DNA of 64,000 bases from a virus (IMGVR_UViG_3300027976_000028:2055-66054); one strand, 5' to 3'. Positions 1,554 through 61,534 are shown, counted from the first letter of the stretch. Notes: generated by a model not told the origin, from the sequence alone. A program made the numbers and translations.

Positions 1554-2255
1554 ATGCGCTTACGAGAATTTATACAACCATTAGAAGAACTTGCAACTGT
1601 AACTCACCGTAATGAGATGGACCGTCTCTTCAAACAAAACGGTTACAAAAAGATTGGTTCCGGTGCAGATGCAATGGTTTATAAGAAAGATAGCAGCCAT
1701 GTTATCAAAATCTTATTCCCAGAAGATTATTCACCAGCAGCAAAGGCAATTAGATCATTCACAACGTTTTATGAATTTGTTAAGGCTAATCCAACATCAC
1801 CGTTCCTACCCAAAATTTCTGAAGTAAACGAAATTGAAGTAATGGGTGAGGTTTTCACGCAGATCGCAATGGAAAAGCTAATGCCCTTAAAATCTGGATC
1901 TTTCCTTTTAGTCATTGTTTATCAAATAATCAGTGATATCGAAGAAGGTGGCGCGCCGGGGCCTAAAGGGGAAGGATTTAAGAACTTGCTATTATATCTT
2001 CAGAAACATCCAGCGAATTGGGATAACGACATCCCGTTCGACGATAGACATTATAACATGTCGCCGATTGCACAATCAATTCTAGCCAATCCCGCTAAAC
2101 TGAAATTCTACAGTGATTTTTATGATATTGCAGAAAAATTACACGCCACAGGTTTAGCACATCCCGATGGTCCTTTAGGATGGGATTTACACACCGAAAA
2201 TGTAATGCTTCGTGGTCAAACACCCGTAATCATTGACCCTTGGTTTATGAGTTAA
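1554..2255 (+). CDS. Protein kinase-like (Ser/Thr kinase fold) protein
   Basis: IGSGADAMVY glycine loop, VIK lysine, DLHTENVM catalytic loop, IIDP; start reassigned to ATG 1554 (MRLREFIQPLEE). Confidence 0.8.
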   Translation: MRLREFIQPLEELATVTHRNEMDRLFKQNGYKKIGSGADAMVYKKDSSHVIKILFPEDYSPAAKAIRSFTTFYEFVKANPTSPFLPKISEVNEIEVMGEVFTQIAMEKLMPLKSGSFLLVIVYQIISDIEEGGAPGPKGEGFKNLLLYLQKHPANWDNDIPFDDRHYNMSPIAQSILANPAKLKFYSDFYDIAEKLHATGLAHPDGPLGWDLHTENVMLRGQTPVIIDPWFMS

Positions 2256-22026: not shown

Positions 22027-22055
22027 TGCCTCTACTGTATTTAGCAGTAGAGGCA
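22027..22055 (-). promoter_or_regulatory. Hairpin with the late promoter in the loop and the SD in the 3' arm (possibly also a terminator)
   Basis: TGCCTCTACTG-CTAAATA-CAGTAGAGGCA-TTTTT-ATG. Confidence 0.8.
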
Positions 22056-22577: not shown

Positions 22578-23168
22578 ATGAGTACTATTAATATACAATA
22601 TTGCGCATTGCCGGAATGCGGCAAGCAGTTTAATAATTGGCGGACTAAATGTTGCTGCCGCAGTCATTCTGGAAGATACTCTTCTAAAGCTAAACACGGG
22701 ACGTTACATTTACCAAGCAAGACGCTTGATGAGATTAAACTTGCAAAGAAGGAAAAGTTGCAAATTAAGAAGAATTTTGTCGGCCCGTGCCAGCCAAACA
22801 TTACCAGAGTTTACACTAAGTACGACACTAAGTCGGTGAAACCTAAGCCACCCAAGCCACCGAAAATAAAGAAACCTAAGCCACCAGGAAAATCAATTGA
22901 ACAACAGAAGGCAGAATGGGTAGCCTATACGGTAAACCGACGCAAAAAGCGTGATTGCTCGATGCCATTATGGGCCAACAAAGAAAAGATATTAGCATTC
23001 TATGTAGAAGCGAGACGATTGACAACACTTACTGGTATTAAGCATGAAGTAGATCATGTAATACCGTCGAACCACCTGCTTGTATGTGGATTGCATAATG
23101 AATTTAATCTGCAGGTCCTGACAAAGACTGAAAATTGCATAAAGAATAATAAATTTGTTATTGACTAG
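22578..23168 (+). CDS. Free-standing HNH endonuclease with N-terminal Cys/His cluster
   Basis: PLWANKEKI..HEVDHVIP..VCGLHNEFNLQVL..ENCIKNN; own TAAATA promoter; opposite strand to neighbours. Confidence 0.85.
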   Translation: MSTINIQYCALPECGKQFNNWRTKCCCRSHSGRYSSKAKHGTLHLPSKTLDEIKLAKKEKLQIKKNFVGPCQPNITRVYTKYDTKSVKPKPPKPPKIKKPKPPGKSIEQQKAEWVAYTVNRRKKRDCSMPLWANKEKILAFYVEARRLTTLTGIKHEVDHVIPSNHLLVCGLHNEFNLQVLTKTENCIKNNKFVID

Positions 23169-23230: not shown

Positions 23231-23425
23231 TCAATAATTGCCCTTGATGCTCAGCTGTAAATTCCGGGCTGCTCTAAATACATCTTCTACATCTGTAAAC
23301 TCTGATGGATTTTCTTGCATTGCAATGGCCTCATCAGAGGACCGCGCCATGACTATCTTCGTTGCACCACCACTGCTCATAACGGTCCACCTAACCAATG
23401 GTGCCGGGCTTCTTGGTTGCGTCAC
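23231..23425 (-). CDS. Small ORF, possibly the frameshifted C-terminus of the amidoligase
   Basis: Overlaps the last 35 nt of 23391..24857 in another frame; no clear SD. Confidence 0.35.
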   Translation of the reverse strand: MTQPRSPAPLVRWTVMSSGGATKIVMARSSDEAIAMQENPSEFTDVEDVFRAARNLQLSIKGNY

Positions 23426-24857
23426 GTTGCAATTTTACGTTCTTTAGCAGACTTTTTAGTCCATTAACGGAAAGCTCGCCAGCAGTAAATCGTGCAAAAT
23501 ATGCAATCGGATCATTGATATCTTTTGGTCCCAATAATTGATATAGCTTCTTTAGATATTCTTGACGATATTTTGTCGGATCAAGTGCTGCATCAAGTGC
23601 AACAACATACCTTAATAATGTAGGTTCAATTTTATCATAATATTTATTTAACCAGTCTCCGCCTGGCGCACGAAATTCGATATATCCATCATGGGTATTA
23701 ATTGTTGTATACTTTTGTGTATTGCCGCTATGGATAGCCTTTGTTGCAAATTCACTTAAATGCTCTTTCATCCGTCCTAATACTGCCGCTACATCTGCTG
23801 GACTATCGCGCATTTTTTGTTTAATTATCCCCATTGCTGATTTTGCATATGTATTGCCCTCTCGTCCAAACGATGCGATTATGTGCTCGTTGCCCATTAG
23901 TAATGCCAGTTTAATGTAATCTAATTTTTGGATACTATACTCGGGCAGGCTAACATTTATGTGTAATCCAGTGCTAGCATTTGTATAACATTTCATACTG
24001 GAACTGGTTGCCCATGCTTTTATCTTAACTAAATCGAGTAATAGCTGCTTAAATGGCAATGGTGGGCTAACAAACTCTAATCCACTTTCATCGCGATTAT
24101 CGGGTTGCAAGCTGCCGTCGGGCTCAATAATATAGGTATTAGCCTCGCGCTTTGCCCTATGTGCATCACCACCGTCATGATTAACTGGCCGCCCTATCAT
24201 AGTGCTAAATTCGTCAGCAAGATACGCAATGTCTAAGTCGCCTTCATCGTCACGAGTATGTTCGGTGTAGTAGGGCCACGACACACCGAAACTATTTTCA
24301 ATGGGTCTCATTGAGTTGTAGTTATCGCGTATCCACTCTCTTTCGGTGGTATCGTTGTGATTGTCATCGTGCCACGTGTTATTCCAATCCTCATACGCAC
24401 TGCGATAATGGCGATTTGAAACTCCGATTGCTGTATCTACGCTTGCTTGGATTTCATCGTCTGACGCTGCTGGATCAGCATCCCTGAAGTATGCCGTTAC
24501 TACTTCTTCTTTTTCTAAAGCCCAGTCATCGTTTTGTTTATCACCGAGCCAATCTAAGTACTCATTTTCAAGTTTATCTTTAACATCACGCAATGCATTT
24601 CTACCACTCTGCCCACCTTCATCAAAGAATCTAATAACATCGTCTATACTATTTGGTCTTTCGTCGTAACTATAATCAGGTTCACTATCATAATAATCGT
24701 CTAACCTGCCGTTAATGCTAATGCCCGGTACAATCATTTCAAATTCCATGCCAGCTGTGGCATTAATTTTGGAGGCTAACATACGCAAGCTACTTGGTGA
24801 CATGTTAAATTCGTTAAGTTGGATTGCTGTAAACGGGTAAATATCTTTAATTCTCAT
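23391..24857 (-). CDS. Putative amidoligase (COOH-NH2 ligase type 2) with a capsid-targeting-like leader
   Basis: AGMEFEM..IEPDGSL..GLEFVSPPL..TNASTGLHINVS..IEFRAPGG. Confidence 0.8.
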   Translation of the reverse strand: MRIKDIYPFTAIQLNEFNMSPSSLRMLASKINATAGMEFEMIVPGISINGRLDDYYDSEPDYSYDERPNSIDDVIRFFDEGGQSGRNALRDVKDKLENEYLDWLGDKQNDDWALEKEEVVTAYFRDADPAASDDEIQASVDTAIGVSNRHYRSAYEDWNNTWHDDNHNDTTEREWIRDNYNSMRPIENSFGVSWPYYTEHTRDDEGDLDIAYLADEFSTMIGRPVNHDGGDAHRAKREANTYIIEPDGSLQPDNRDESGLEFVSPPLPFKQLLLDLVKIKAWATSSSMKCYTNASTGLHINVSLPEYSIQKLDYIKLALLMGNEHIIASFGREGNTYAKSAMGIIKQKMRDSPADVAAVLGRMKEHLSEFATKAIHSGNTQKYTTINTHDGYIEFRAPGGDWLNKYYDKIEPTLLRYVVALDAALDPTKYRQEYLKKLYQLLGPKDINDPIAYFARFTAGELSVNGLKSLLKNVKLQRDATKKPGTIG

Positions 24858-24888
24858 TAACTATTTAGCAATTGTGATGCACTCAAGA

Positions 24889-25133
24889 GAGTCTGGCCGA
24901 AGCCAGACTCAATGACATAATGCGTGGACAAATTAGAAATAGTCAAATAGGGAATAAAAAATAGAAACTAGCAAATATGCGATTTAGTTAGGACATACTA
25001 GCAAACATCAAAATTTATAATATGATGCCCTAACAAGTCAGTTAGTTTAGAGTTTTCAGGTCTAAGCCATAAGGGTTATAGTTTTCGAGACTATATTTTA
25101 TTTCTAGCTACTCCACGGACTAAGGGGTCAATC
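24889..25133 (-). ncRNA. Candidate structured non-coding RNA / long 3' UTR
   Basis: 245 nt with no convincing ORF; long-range CGTGGA/TCCACG and TAGAAATA/TATTTCTA pairings; two GAAAAC-loop hairpins; terminal GAGTCTGGC-TTCG-GCCAGACTC hairpin. Confidence 0.5.
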
Positions 25134-25721
25134 TTAGTCTAGTCCAAGTTCAGCAAGCACAAGTGCAATCTGTCCAGGAACCTCAAACTCAGTACGAACG
25201 TTGATGGAAACCATCTCGTCCTTAATCTTCCGACGACGTCTGCGAATTGTTTCCAATTCAGCCTTTGCATCAGCAATAATGTTAGCAGGAACAACATTTA
25301 CCTCAACGGTATATGTAGAGTGCCCATACAAGCTTGCGCGAGCATTCTCCGCAGTTGATGCAGTTTTACGTGCTGTGATTTCAGCAGTAAGCACAAGAAT
25401 GTCATGCCGCGGTGTAAGTTCGGATAGAGCCTTAACACGGGTTTCAGCAGAAGCCAAGAATGCTTCCTCTGCAAGATAATCGGTAATACCAACCTGCGCA
25501 TTTTGTTTTGCAACGGCTGCACGAAGGTAGCGATTAGCATCCAACAGACGACCAGCCTTGTTATTTGATTCCAGAATCTTTGCTAATTGTGCGTCAAGGG
25601 TTGCCTCAAGACCAGCATCAAAGAGGCTAACATTAACTTCGGTTTTTTCGGAACCGATTCGTTTAATTTCATCAACAATAATTTGTTGGACTACAGATGC
25701 CTTGCGTAGATTTATTTTCAT
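25134..25721 (-). CDS. Helical/coiled-coil hypothetical protein (remotely DIP1984/DUF6847-like)
   Basis: 195 aa, MKINLRKASVVQ..KIKDEMVSINVRT; AAGGA SD; own sigma70 promoter. Confidence 0.7.
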   Translation of the reverse strand: MKINLRKASVVQQIIVDEIKRIGSEKTEVNVSLFDAGLEATLDAQLAKILESNNKAGRLLDANRYLRAAVAKQNAQVGITDYLAEEAFLASAETRVKALSELTPRHDILVLTAEITARKTASTAENARASLYGHSTYTVEVNVVPANIIADAKAELETIRRRRRKIKDEMVSINVRTEFEVPGQIALVLAELGLD

Positions 25722-25756
25722 TTTGTTTCCTTAGTAATGTATTGCACTATACGACT

Positions 25757-25785
25757 ATTATAGCAACATTACTATGGATTGTCAA
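25757..25785 (-). promoter_or_regulatory. Sigma70 consensus promoter
   Basis: TTGACA-N17-TATAAT. Confidence 0.85.
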
Positions 25786-31237: not shown

Positions 31238-31243
31238 AAAAAA

Positions 31244-31274
31244 TGCCTCCAACTGTATTTAGCAGTTGGAGGCA
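31244..31274 (-). promoter_or_regulatory. Hairpin with the late promoter in the loop and the SD in the 3' arm (possibly also a terminator)
   Basis: TGCCTCCAACTG-CTAAATA-CAGTTGGAGGCA-TTTTTT-ATG. Confidence 0.8.
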
Positions 31275-31291
31275 CATATTGTCTTAAGAAT

Positions 31292-31930
31292 TTACGATGG
31301 TTTTCGTATTCGTTCAAATCGTTCAATGAAACCACCTAATTGTAGCCGTAACATAGCGGCTTCTGTATCATCTTTTAGATACAGGTACATGGGTTGCCCC
31401 CATGCATAAGTTGCATACATTCTGCCATCTTTGACAATCTGACCGATCATACCAGCAGCAGCCCACCCATCTACGTCAAGGGTAGCAACAGCAGTTTTAA
31501 GCAGTGTTGGATCGGCATTTCTAAGCTTTTGGCTATACGGAATAAGCGCCCGTATTGGAAACTTGCCGTACCACGGAGTTGCCCGTATGACATCATGCAC
31601 GTGATCTAATAGTAGCTCCTTACTTGCATCATTGGCCGGTGCCCACAATTCAATAGCAAGGTGCCCATACGAACAAAGTACAGTATCAACTTCATCTTCA
31701 GTATGCAGAAATATACTTAGGTTCATTTCTCGACGAAATCCAAAGTCAGTAAACTTTGTTTGGCACCAACCCTTAATTCTATTGGATTCATCAAGCCGCA
31801 TTATCCTATTACTGCGATTGTGTTTCCACGCACCTGGAATAATTCGATCAGTCTCAATTGGCAATAGCTGTAAAATGACCTTGTAAGGCCACTTTTTCCA
31901 GTACAGTTTTTGAGTCGAATGTGTTTTCAT
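31292..31930 (-). CDS. Hypothetical protein
   Basis: 212-aa ORF coupled to clpA. Confidence 0.7.
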   Translation of the reverse strand: MKTHSTQKLYWKKWPYKVILQLLPIETDRIIPGAWKHNRSNRIMRLDESNRIKGWCQTKFTDFGFRREMNLSIFLHTEDEVDTVLCSYGHLAIELWAPANDASKELLLDHVHDVIRATPWYGKFPIRALIPYSQKLRNADPTLLKTAVATLDVDGWAAAGMIGQIVKDGRMYATYAWGQPMYLYLKDDTEAAMLRLQLGGFIERFERIRKPS

Positions 31931-34149
31931 TATGAGATTTCAAGTTCACCATTGACAGTGTTAATACAGTGAGTATCGAGCCCATCTTTGATAATACGCT
32001 TGGCTATTGGTAACCGAATTTGCTCGTTAATTAACCGCTTCATTGGACGAGCACCCATTGTTTCACTGTAACCGTGTTCAGCAAGGTAGTCTAACACTGC
32101 ATCACAATATACAATGCTTTGATTTTGTTCAACAAGTTGTTCTCGGATTTGAAGCATAAATTTATCAGCAACTCTACGGGCAATCTCACGTGGCAATCGA
32201 TTAAACTTAACAATAGCATCAAGCCTATTTCTAAATTCCGGCGTAAAGAAACGCTTAACAGCATCATCTGAAGCAGAATCATTCAATCCGCCACCAAAGC
32301 CAATGACATTCTTCTCACTATCAGCAGCGCCAAGATTACTTGTTAGAATAACAAACGCATTACGGGCACTTGCTTGCTTATTATCGCTACCAGTAATAAT
32401 GCCATGATCCATTAAGCCCAGCAAGACTTGAATTATGTCTGGGTGAGCTTTTTCAATTTCATCAAACAGTAATACGCAATTCGGAACACGGGTTAGTTCA
32501 TTAATCAACTTTCCACTACCAGCCTTACCTTCACCATAACCAACATAGCCAGGCGGTGAGCCAATCAATGACGCAATCTTGTGGGATTCTTTGTATTCGC
32601 TCATATCAAAGCGGATAACTTCCATTCCCAATCCAAGTCCCAATTGTAGTGCCAATTCAGACTTACCAGTTCCAGTTGGTCCCACAAACAGGAAGTTTGC
32701 CATTGGGCGATTTACTTCTTTTAATCCAGACTTGGCAATATACACCATGTTCATTAAACGTTCAATTGCTTCATCTTGGCCAAATACGTTTGTACGCATA
32801 CGGCTTTCGAGGTCAGCAACTGCTACGTTCTTTTGTTCGCCAAGTTGTTCTAAAGGAATACGTGTAATCTCGCTTAGTTCCTTACGGATATCATCAGCTG
32901 TTAGTTCAGTACCTTCGGCTGCATTAGTAACACGCAACCTTGACATAGCGGCGTCGATAATATCAATTGCTTTGTCGGGTAACTTCTTGTCTAACATATA
33001 CTTCATTGACAAGTCAATGGCGAGATCAATTGCAGTATCGCCAATTGTTAGTTTGTGATATGCACTATAAATTGGGGCGACTCGTCGCATTAGAGTTTGA
33101 GTGTCAGTAACTGACATTTCTTCAATGTCAATCTTTGTAAACCGACGCAGTAAAGCACGATCCTTGTCGAAGTGTTCGCGGAATTCTTCGTATGTGGTAC
33201 TGCCGATGCATCTCAATCTACCCTTTTCCAAACTTGGTTTTAGTAAGTTAGCAACGTCCATGCTACTCCCCCCGCCAGCCCCTGCGCCCATAATCATATG
33301 GATTTCATCAATGAACAGAATAGCATCTTCGCGCTCTTCTAATGCCTCAAGGACTTGTTGCATACGTTCTTCAAAGTCGCCGCGGTATTTTGTACCAGCA
33401 AGCAATTTCCCGATGTCTAAACTGTAGATAGTTTTACCCTTTAGTACCGTTGGTACTTCATCACGAACAATAGCAACTGCAAGGCCTTCTACAATTTGAG
33501 TTTTGCCAACACCTGGTTCGCCAACCATAATGGCATTGTTCTTCTTCTTGCGAGTAAGTGTCTGAGCCAGACGGAACACTTCTTTCTCACGACCAATCAA
33601 TGGATCTATTAATTTTGCCTCGGCACTTTTATTGAGGTTAGTAGTGTATTTGTTTAGGATCCTTTCACCGTCGCGCCTCTTAACATTACTGCTTTCCTTA
33701 CTATGGCCATCCTTTAATTTTCCAACGTAGTTAATCAATATTTCTTTAGTGATACCATTTTTCGCCAGAAAGAAATTAGCATGACTGTTCTTTTCAGTAG
33801 CAATACTTATTAGTAAGTCAAGTGGTTCCATATGACCCCTGCCGGTAAAGATGGCTTGGGTATACGCTCGGTTGAAGCATCGTTCAAGTGTAGCAGTTTT
33901 GCGTGGCTTAGTAATGCCCTCTACTCGAATATCATCTTGCTCTAGTAACCAAGCATCAATTTCATCCCGTAACTCAGTAACATCTACATCCAATTCTTTG
34001 AGAGTGTCCCTTACTTCATCATCGTCAAGCATGACGCGCAGGATGTGTTCCAGCGTAACATATTCGTGTTCGCGGCTCAGCGCGTCTTGAAATGCCCGTG
34101 CAATCACCTCGTTAATTCGTCCGTTATTGTTCTCATTTTCTTGACTCAT
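31930..34149 (-). CDS. clpA: ATP-dependent Clp protease ATP-binding subunit ClpA
   Basis: HEYVTLEH N-domain; GEPGVGKT and GPTGTGKS Walker A motifs; IGF loop; GARPMKR. Confidence 0.95.
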   Translation of the reverse strand: MSQENENNNGRINEVIARAFQDALSREHEYVTLEHILRVMLDDDEVRDTLKELDVDVTELRDEIDAWLLEQDDIRVEGITKPRKTATLERCFNRAYTQAIFTGRGHMEPLDLLISIATEKNSHANFFLAKNGITKEILINYVGKLKDGHSKESSNVKRRDGERILNKYTTNLNKSAEAKLIDPLIGREKEVFRLAQTLTRKKKNNAIMVGEPGVGKTQIVEGLAVAIVRDEVPTVLKGKTIYSLDIGKLLAGTKYRGDFEERMQQVLEALEEREDAILFIDEIHMIMGAGAGGGSSMDVANLLKPSLEKGRLRCIGSTTYEEFREHFDKDRALLRRFTKIDIEEMSVTDTQTLMRRVAPIYSAYHKLTIGDTAIDLAIDLSMKYMLDKKLPDKAIDIIDAAMSRLRVTNAAEGTELTADDIRKELSEITRIPLEQLGEQKNVAVADLESRMRTNVFGQDEAIERLMNMVYIAKSGLKEVNRPMANFLFVGPTGTGKSELALQLGLGLGMEVIRFDMSEYKESHKIASLIGSPPGYVGYGEGKAGSGKLINELTRVPNCVLLFDEIEKAHPDIIQVLLGLMDHGIITGSDNKQASARNAFVILTSNLGAADSEKNVIGFGGGLNDSASDDAVKRFFTPEFRNRLDAIVKFNRLPREIARRVADKFMLQIREQLVEQNQSIVYCDAVLDYLAEHGYSETMGARPMKRLINEQIRLPIAKRIIKDGLDTHCINTVNGELEIS

Positions 34150-60307: not shown

Positions 60308-61534
60308 TTATGCTGCCGTTATATTTGTAAACACCTTGACAGGCGAGTGGTCTTCCACTGTTGTCGCAGTAATTATACACTTACTTAACCCTTCTGCTGC
60401 TAATTCTGGTAGATTAAACTGAATATCCAACAAAATTGTTTCAATAATGTTCCTCAACCCACGAGCGCCTGTTTTCTTAGCAATACTTTTCTCTGCAATA
60501 GCAATACGTGCTTCATGAGTGAATTCTAACTCAACACCATCCATCTTAAATATCGCTGTAAACTCTTTCTCAATGCTATCTTCGGGCTCACACATAATAC
60601 GAACAAGGTCTTCGGCAAGTAATGTATCAAGGGCAGCAATAACTGGAATACGTCCCATAAACTCAGGAATCATTCCAAATTTAACAAAGTCCTCGGGCTC
60701 TACATTGGCAATCCAATGATCAGTTTTTATATCGGCAGTGCCAATCTCTGCACCAAATCCAATCTTTATACCACCGGTCATACGTTTCTTGACTTGCTCG
60801 TCAAGACCAATGAATGCGCCGCCCAATATGAATAAGATATTCTTTGTATTGACTACATTAGTGGCACCAGCTGGATGTTTTCTTCCACCAGTAACCGGGA
60901 CACGACATTCGGTACCTTCAATAAGTTTTAACAATGCCTGCTGTACGCCTTCGCCACTTACGTCTCGGCTAATGCTGGCACTTTCACTCTTACGACCCTT
61001 CTTATCAATTTCGTCAATGTAGATGATACCACTCTCTGCCTTCTTAATATCACCATCTGCACTTTGCAGTAAACGGTGGATGACACTTTCGACGTCATCA
61101 CCTACATACCCAGATTCAGTTAATGTAGTAGCGTCGGCCATTGCAAACGGGACGTTGATTCTCTCGGCAAGCTTTTTGGCAAGTAAAGTCTTACCGCTAC
61201 CAGATGGTCCCACTAACAATACATTACTTTTCTTAATAAGATCGTTGTCGCTACCTTGACTAAGTCGTTTATAGTGATTACGTACAGCTACACTTAATTG
61301 ACGCTTAGCCATATGCTGCCCAATAATGAATCGGTCAAGGTATGTCTTAATTTCCAACGGAGTAGTAGCATCGTCAAATGTAGAAGGTGCTGTTCCTTTA
61401 TTGGTGGACAATGCTTCTAAACATAAGTTGATGCAAGAATTGCATATATATGCGCTATCGCCGGCAATTAGCGCATCAACTTCGTCTCTGTGTTTATTAC
61501 AGAAACTACATACAAGATTTTGTACTTTATCCAA
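60308..61534 (-). CDS. clpX: ATP-dependent Clp protease ATP-binding subunit ClpX
   Basis: CSFC..ICNSC zinc finger, [32 protein letters not shown] loop, GARGLR. Confidence 0.96.

Follow-up and report, generated by a model that had tools for sequence, protein, structure and literature searches.

A gene for a 195-amino-acid helical protein and a structured non-coding RNA encoded next to it are kept together in very distantly related large phages, and we propose that the two are probably the halves of an undescribed protein-RNA particle. The unit was analysed in a stretch of 64,000 nucleotides (nt), hereafter the window, which represents 64 kb of the 71-kb IMG/VR virus record IMGVR_UViG_3300027976_000028; positions are counted from the first letter of the window, in which the module lies entirely on the minus strand. 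CheckV puts the completeness of the 71-kb record at 21%, from which the full genome would be expected to reach some 300 kb or more; its products include Clp-like ATPases and very large multi-module proteins. The gene occupies positions 25134-25721 and is preceded by a sigma70-type promoter, TTGACA-17-TATAAT with a TG extension (25757-25785), which matches the consensus at 12 of 12 positions. Behind the gene lies an intergenic gap of 276 nt (25133-24858), which contains no open reading frame (ORF) of 30 or more amino acids, is the longest stretch of the window without an ORF of at least 50 amino acids and is bounded at its 3' side by the start of an amidoligase-like gene (24857-23391, minus strand). 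An earlier note, made from the sequence alone, had singled out a consensus sigma70 promoter, a helical gene of 195 codons and the longest non-coding stretch of the window, and had read them as an early unit of a dedicated protein gene and a structured RNA. The three features are as described, and the pair of gene and RNA was found again in all 28 close relatives and in every distant clade examined.

The close relatives come from a protein-based scan of IMG/VR, which recovered 28 loci with homologues at 53-68% identity. In all 28, a conserved element of about 225 nt starts at most a few bases away from the stop codon, and the genes beyond the RNA vary from locus to locus. The inspection of the regions downstream of homologues that the earlier note had suggested revealed a conserved, structured 3' RNA with strong covariation. 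In a MAFFT/alifold consensus of 19 distinct copies, 25 of the 42 pairs show compensatory changes. R1, a covariance model built from this alignment, gives exactly one full-length match per locus, always on the strand of the gene, with 145-244 bits in the 28 loci, as compared to at most 27 bits for antisense matches. When 20 distinct sequences were aligned with the model, standard pairs made up 93.5% of cells, which none of 500 shuffles (mean 82.8%) reached, and 32 of 49 pairs had changed in both partners. If the 3' partners were shifted by 1-3 columns, pairing fell to 36-47% and the number of compensatory pairs to 11-12. An alignment fitted to the model favours the structure, and the independent MAFFT/alifold result agrees with it. 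Many positions switch between A-U and G-U, which on the opposite strand would give A-C mismatches, indicating that the sense transcript is the folded molecule. We conclude that the RNA is real, conserved and structured on the sense strand.

In the window, the RNA comprises 218 nt (24913-25130) and is matched by R1 at 25135-24906 with 148.6 bits; the conserved RNA measures 218-230 nt and not the approximately 245 nt given in the earlier note. It is composed of stacked closing helices P1-P3, two small hairpins, a long hairpin and a largely unpaired 3' tract, which continues into the 3' arm of P3. The ends are joined by the pairings TGAC/GTCA (25130-25127 with 24916-24913), CGTGGA/TCCACG (25117-25112 with 24928-24923) and TAGAAATA/TATTTCTA (25106-25099 with 24941-24934). 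Hairpin 1, with the arms TATAGT and ACTATA around the loop CTCGAAA (25077-25095), sits at a site where every relative has a hairpin of differing sequence, and all seven model pairs of this helix (helix 4) are compensatory. Hairpin 2 (25047-25065) has the arms TTAGA and TCTAA and the loop CCTGAAAAC, of a conserved CUUGAAA type; this loop, C-U-U/G-G/A-A-A-A, is kept across the clade and is found again in the distant locus L084. The long hairpin P6 (24988-25033; helix 7) is closed by the stem TTAGGGCA/TGTCCTAA (25033-25026 with 24995-24988), shows compensatory change in 9 of 12 pairs and carries in its apical loop two UUG units, 7 nt apart, at 25011 and 25004. The motif TTTGCTAGT occurs twice, near 25005 and 24975. 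Folded in isolation, the window stretch has a minimum free energy z-score of -3.96 relative to shuffled sequences, which exceeds chance, but it is the comparison with the relatives that we regard as decisive. All of the pairings, hairpins, stems and doubled motifs that had been listed previously are present in the sequence, but the list missed what we regard as the key feature, a phased UUG array, which is degenerate in the window. The C(UUCG)G hairpin that had been thought to close the RNA likewise exists, with 9 base pairs just 3' of the RNA (24889-24910), but it lies outside the conserved RNA and was not found in the homologues. As it lacks a U tract, the terminator scan gave no intrinsic terminator call; it probably forms the 3' end of the RNA or stabilises it.

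The promoter is conserved together with the gene. An equivalent promoter, matching the consensus at 10-12 of 12 positions and ending 31-39 nt before the ATG, is present in all 17 window-clade loci, and similar promoters precede the gene in the clades of Colossus and GAP32. In T4-type phages, promoters of this kind are used by the unmodified host polymerase early in infection. By analogy, the conserved promoter fits early transcription by the host polymerase, in line with the early timing that had been assumed for the unit.

The protein belongs to a family that we consider to be viral and essentially confined to large virulent phages. At E<=1e-3, a profile search against 1.84 billion representatives returned 784 clusters (50% identity), the members of which are, with few exceptions, 185-195 amino acids long. 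The ESM Atlas clusters of the family are 91-100% viral, and the single match in 185,579 prokaryote genomes comes from a metagenome-assembled genome, where it lies on a contig of 86 kb. Distant members fall into phrog_25230, which has no functional annotation. This was also the only hit, obtained with distant members, when the protein and 62 relatives were compared with Pfam, PHROGs, NCBIfam and PADLOC; the window protein itself matches no family in these four collections, a sequence profile search of the PDB gave nothing meaningful and two locus scans with single proteins as query gave no match. An AlphaFold2 model computed with 62 diverse homologues has a predicted local distance difference test score (pLDDT) of 94.3 and is almost wholly helical: five long helices are accompanied by a short strand at the N terminus, which pairs with one at the C terminus (two strands of three residues). 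It supersedes a first model based on 18 close sequences, which reached a pLDDT of 69 and resembled generic bundles only. Conserved residues include L5, R6, K7 and A8 at the N terminus as well as R67, N74, G78 and N174, and the window clade has a basic helix, RRRRKIKD. The top fold match in two separate searches is 3KDQ, the Corynebacterium diphtheriae protein DIP1984, with a Z-score of 11.1 over 143 residues and a root mean square deviation of 5.9 Å in VIA, where values below approximately 13 are common for helical bundles, and with a probability of 0.96 and an E-value of 0.13 in Foldseek. DIP1984 represents DUF6847 (PF20935), and this family is found in 19% of the members of one structural-neighbour cluster in the ESM Atlas. 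The partner protein is approximately 45 residues longer and shows no membership by sequence: at a cut-off of 27 bits the Pfam model does not match the window protein, two of 62 family members match with an E-value of 0.12, and six-frame searches at E<=10 found none in the source genome, GAP32, CcrColossus, fHe-Yen9-04 or the genome G001. As the DUF6847 model is not matched, the relation to 3KDQ, the best structural match of a high-confidence model, stays at a possible resemblance of fold.

Homologues of the gene are also encoded by cultured jumbo phages, as revealed by tblastn searches with the window protein and distant representatives as queries. The carriers are CcrColossus (gp272), CcrPW (gp279), at least six Brevundimonas phages, GAP32 (GAP32_372), XbC2 (XbC2_382), fHe-Yen9-04 (g381), Serratia phage BF and the Erwinia pEa_SNUABM phages. 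Every annotated record leaves 284-354 nt behind the gene without annotation, and the fold obtained for these stretches is a long closing stem enclosing several hairpins. A further scan of IMG/VR added the uncultured clades L061-L084. The RNA, which measures 220-330 nt across clades, was found in three gene orders. It follows the gene directly in the window clade, in GAP32, XbC2 and fHe-Yen9-04, in CcrColossus, CcrPW and the Brevundimonas phages and in L075, L078, L079, L082, L084 and L205. In L067, L070 and L080 it lies behind an inserted, conserved ORF of 139 amino acids (about 1771-2190), which starts MKIGLSYSRCVKDIV. In clade B (L062-L066, L071-L077) it precedes the gene as a 5' leader, starting just past the TATAAT box and stopping approximately 30 nt before the start codon. 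In five clade B loci (L062, L071, L074, L076 and L077) the space after the gene is filled by a conserved ORF of approximately 100 amino acids on the opposite strand (about 1742-2044, reverse strand), which may be a mobile insertion. Of the RNAs of distant clades, R1 recognises only that behind the gene in L205 (23 bits, E 1.7e-4), and RNA homology between clades therefore rests on architecture and linkage, not on sequence. Gene and RNA occur together in every distant clade examined, and we conclude that the RNA is genetically tied to the protein family across very distant phages.

The genomic setting of the module provides a further indication of the nature of the RNA. Among 20 loci from clades B, C, E, F and G, 17 carry the module amid transfer RNA (tRNA) genes on the same strand, as is expected for a stable, processed RNA; no tRNA genes were found near the copies of the window and Colossus clades. 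The tRNA arrays fit a stable RNA that is matured together with the tRNAs, and they might point to a connection with translation or with the biology of tRNAs. In GAP32, fHe-Yen9-04 and XbC2, a tRNA-Thr(UGU) gene follows the RNA and an AT-rich hairpin (L033 3406-3488, L034 3376-3458 and L035 3430-3502 for GAP32, fHe-Yen9-04 and XbC2, respectively), and a tRNA-Trp gene is found approximately 2.2 kb upstream. A gene for a 5'(3')-deoxyribonucleotidase is nearby in these three phages and in the Brevundimonas phages.

The same arrangement could be expected of a cis-acting element, either an autoregulatory one, through which the protein or a host factor would act on mRNA translation or stability, or one of the nut or put kind, which would modify the transcribing polymerase and give processive antitermination across the untranslated tRNA arrays further downstream. 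Gene and RNA invariably share a strand and a transcription unit, the clade B leader begins just past the -10 box, and long untranslated tRNA arrays lie downstream in many clades. Nevertheless, the position of the RNA as 5' leader, as 3' trailer or behind another ORF is not what control of a ribosome binding site would predict, and a multi-helix RNA of this size is large for an autoregulatory operator. The window and Colossus clades, moreover, lack tRNAs nearby, and a strong hairpin comes after the RNA in the window. Taking both versions together, we consider cis action to be unlikely, albeit the least unlikely of the alternatives.

All clades share one hallmark, a long closing stem around a 3' tract in which UUG triplets recur with a fixed period. 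Six UUG triplets at a spacing of 7 nt are present in CcrColossus, CcrPW and L084, five in L012, L026 and clade B and four in clades E and F, while GAP32, XbC2 and fHe-Yen9-04 have five at a spacing of 8 nt and Brevundimonas phage Kikimora has five CUGUG heptads in place of the UUG units. In shuffled whole loci, the mean phased UUG chain is approximately 2 units long and the maximum 3-5. The flavour of the repeat differs between protein clades (UUUGAY, UUGCA, GGUUGC at 8 nt, UUGUG and CUGUG). In small samples from five clades, the UUG columns are 0.91-1.00 identical, as compared to 0.39-0.80 for the spacers and 0.71-0.90 for all other parts of the RNA. In the window, the tract consists of seven 7-nt units of the type YUAUUUN (24929-24979), of which three retain the G, with UUG at 24974, 24946 and 24931 (28 and 15 nt apart). 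Five phased UUG triplets are unspecific when taken on their own: among 80 IMG/VR matches listed, only two encode the protein family, and in both the gene directly adjoins the phased stretch.

Repeats of this kind could also act at the level of DNA, be it in an iteron-bearing replication origin, in a site for packaging or in a cluster of promoters. The TTGAC/TTGAT units do resemble -35 hexamers and iterons, and oriE of T4 combines an early transcription unit with iterons. We regard such a function as highly unlikely, since the compensatory changes come with abundant G-U pairs that make sense on one strand only, the antisense strand scores poorly with R1, a 7-nt phase does not match the helical repeat of DNA and the element is found within same-strand tRNA operons.

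Alternatively, the array could be a sponge or decoy for a host RNA-binding protein such as Hfq, with the neighbouring protein being unrelated or an accessory early gene product. Units of the AUUUG type resemble Sm sites, and a series of U-rich units ending in G, exposed on a stable scaffold and expressed from a strong early promoter, would suit this purpose. Unit and period, however, differ between clades (7 to 8 nt) although the candidate host factors are conserved, and as these shifts follow the protein clade, the array is more probably read by the phage protein than by a conserved host factor. In addition, the RNA was never seen without the protein gene in the loci examined, and the only two phased stretches with the gene among the 80 listed have it as their immediate neighbour. 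A sponge is thus unlikely, and slightly more so than a cis-acting element.

Instead, with moderate confidence, we propose a ribonucleoprotein particle that is made from one early transcript and acts in trans. The host sigma70 polymerase would produce an early transcript that yields two products, the 195-amino-acid helical protein and a discrete folded RNA of approximately 220 nt. The closing helices P1-P3 would join the ends of the RNA, with the hairpins occupying its 5' half, to give a closed scaffold, in which the 3' half of the central loop presents single-stranded UUG triplets, one per 7 nt. Several copies of the protein could then assemble on the array as a ring or short filament, with one protomer per UUG unit. 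By holding the array in a loop, the closing helices would give a stable particle that acts during infection. The uniform length, the conserved N terminus and the basic helix of the protein were counted in favour of such a particle.

Several points weigh against this proposal. We infer the binding of the protein to the repeats, and the particle itself, from linkage and anatomy, and a tight linkage of gene and RNA could also come from regulation in cis. With a G in only three of its seven heptads, the window copy implies that the array need not be perfect. Part of the array is paired by alifold in clade B, so that its single-strandedness is an assumption. Finally, the fold matches other than 3KDQ are generic helical bundles, and none is a recognised RNA-binding fold.

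The closest parallel is VIPR, which consists of the Vipr protein and the non-coding vrRNA (bioRxiv 10.64898/2026.04.26.720920, 10.64898/2026.04.26.720927, 10.64898/2026.10.15.759431). Vipr protomers polymerise along 5-nt GGY/NN repeats, the variable bases of which serve as a gapped DNA guide (bioRxiv 10.64898/2026.04.26.720920, 10.64898/2026.04.26.720927). Both systems are minimal, phage-encoded loci of one small protein and an adjacent non-coding RNA, in which a fixed trinucleotide alternates in tandem with less conserved bases and a conserved structured part is attached; polymerisation along the repeats would be a further similarity, although for the UUG module this mechanism is inferred. 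The differences are considerable. Vipr has a RAMP/RRM fold with an RRM core, a G-loop and a thumb, and the protein described here is predicted to be all-helical. The vrRNAs are approximately 100 nt long, contain 9-16 units of 5 nt (YNNGG) and are often arrayed, whereas the UUG module has 4-6 NNNNUUG units of 7 or 8 nt in one closed RNA of 220-330 nt, lacks a vap accessory gene and, in the window clade, has spacers that are not hypervariable.

Given this precedent, one might speculate that the module is a second, independently evolved noncontiguous guide system, in which a helical non-RAMP protein polymerises on UUG and presents four variable bases per unit, which jointly (20-24 nt) would direct it to DNA or RNA belonging to the host or to a rival mobile element. 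A phage-encoded locus with a fixed trinucleotide, tandem spacers that evolve faster than the rest of the RNA in five clades and a conserved structured handle would be compatible with this idea. On the other hand, the spacers of the window clade are constrained (mostly AYNU or CUNU) and mutually alike, and therefore resemble segments of a recurring 7-mer more than a code. The array has no more than 5-6 units, and a lower spacer identity is equally expected of unconstrained linkers. We consider a guide function to be doubtful, marginally more so than the sponge.

A similar way of working may also be found, by analogy, in two bacterial regulators. HutP reads UAG triplets with 4-nt spacers, that is with a period of 7 nt, and TRAP reads GAG/UAG triplets with spacers of 2-3 nt. 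As is proposed here for the phage protein, both are homo-oligomers that read phased trinucleotides on single-stranded RNA. In contrast, they are host regulators that respond to amino acids and act on the leaders of metabolic operons, they form beta-rich rings without relation to the helical protein, they bind RNAs other than closed, covarying scaffolds and they are encoded without a dedicated RNA gene alongside. The family has no sequence match to HutP or TRAP in Pfam, NCBIfam or the PDB, and the likeness lies only in the phased-triplet RNA target. By fold, unit, period and RNA architecture, the UUG module stands outside HutP, TRAP and VIPR.

The earlier note had suggested an antitoxin or decoy, and a protein gene beside a repeat-bearing RNA in a phage does call to mind type III toxin-antitoxin pairs. 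In ToxIN, too, the protein gene and a repeat RNA are co-transcribed, and the RNA binds several copies of the protein. However, the ToxI repeats of 36 nt are located upstream of toxN and are processed by the endoribonuclease fold of ToxN, and tandem repeats of 34-36 nt upstream of the toxin are typical of such pairs, which is different from 7-nt units in a closed scaffold that is usually downstream of the gene. The partner protein is a helical bundle and not a nuclease of the ToxN/AbiE type or an endoribonuclease of the ToxN/CptN/TenpN type, it has neither a toxin-like match nor one in PADLOC, and its family is essentially one of large virulent phages with almost no occurrence in prokaryote genomes. 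The suggestion is not supported; a type III-like pair or an antitoxin decoy is very unlikely, to the same degree as a DNA-level element. The RNA also resembles GOLLD and ROOL (RF01998, RF03087) in being an ornate non-coding RNA of phages or prophages that is often found beside tRNA genes. Those RNAs measure 500-800 nt and have no dedicated partner protein gene, and they form RNA-only cages (PMC12286853).

Full-text literature searches yielded no description of the gene-RNA pair. In a language-model survey, the sole cluster with a 7-nt period is a different element without a protein partner, and the 10,006 candidates in a catalogue of viral csRNAs are each at most 151 nt long (PMC10690425). At the gathering score, Rfam 15, which includes RAGATH-27 (RF03100), transfer-messenger RNA (tmRNA), 6S, Y RNA, GOLLD and ROOL, gave no match in the window and only tRNAs in 16 related loci; at E<=10, positions 24800-25200 produced only chance-level matches to unrelated families. 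ARAGORN detected no tRNA or tmRNA, and none of 50,697 phage records matched the region at the nucleotide level. Neither the protein nor the RNA has so far been named, placed in a functional family or given a function, and yet the unit is kept by phages as unrelated as T4-like freshwater giants, the GAP32 group and giant siphophages of Caulobacter and Brevundimonas. An RNA that covaries so strongly and has its own protein partner bears the hallmarks of a ribonucleoprotein machine, and earlier machines of this kind, such as tmRNA-SmpB, CRISPR and most recently VIPR, have repeatedly opened up new biology and new tools. The phased array of a fixed triplet provides a concrete binding model, and the cultured carriers GAP32, fHe-Yen9-04 and CcrColossus make the module experimentally approachable.

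Three other comparisons were tried and rejected. The stable RNAs rnaC and rnaD of T4 have neither a heptad array nor a partner gene and are not considered relatives. Mimicry of an anticodon loop, with UUUGAU corresponding to the loop of tRNA-Gln(UUG), fits the window clade only, and a boxB-like reading of the CUGAAAA loop fails because stem and loop register do not fit.

A few observations concern the surroundings of the module. In two of the loci (L020 and L021), a strong sigma70-type promoter, TTGACA-17-TACAAT/TATAAT, is located approximately 10-60 nt past the RNA and starts the next gene. The amidoligase-like gene that follows in the window encodes a protein of 488 amino acids (23391-24857, minus strand) with a match to phrog_33777 and a marginal match to Amidoligase_2 (23.4 bits at a cut-off of 22); its adjacency to the module is not kept in relatives. 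Two genes past the module, an HNH endonuclease-like ORF of 196 amino acids (22578-23168, plus strand) is oriented opposite to its neighbours, and HNH genes are also found near the module in GAP32, XbC2, CcrColossus and Domovoi. Two near-identical, perfect hairpins of 11-13 base pairs with a CTAAATA-type loop (22027-22055 and 31243-31275) scored as terminator-like on both strands. Further along the minus strand, the window encodes a ClpA/ClpB-like ATP-dependent protease ATPase (31930-34149; phrog_4871, E 7e-232) and a ClpX-like protein of 408 amino acids (60308-61534; phrog_4339).

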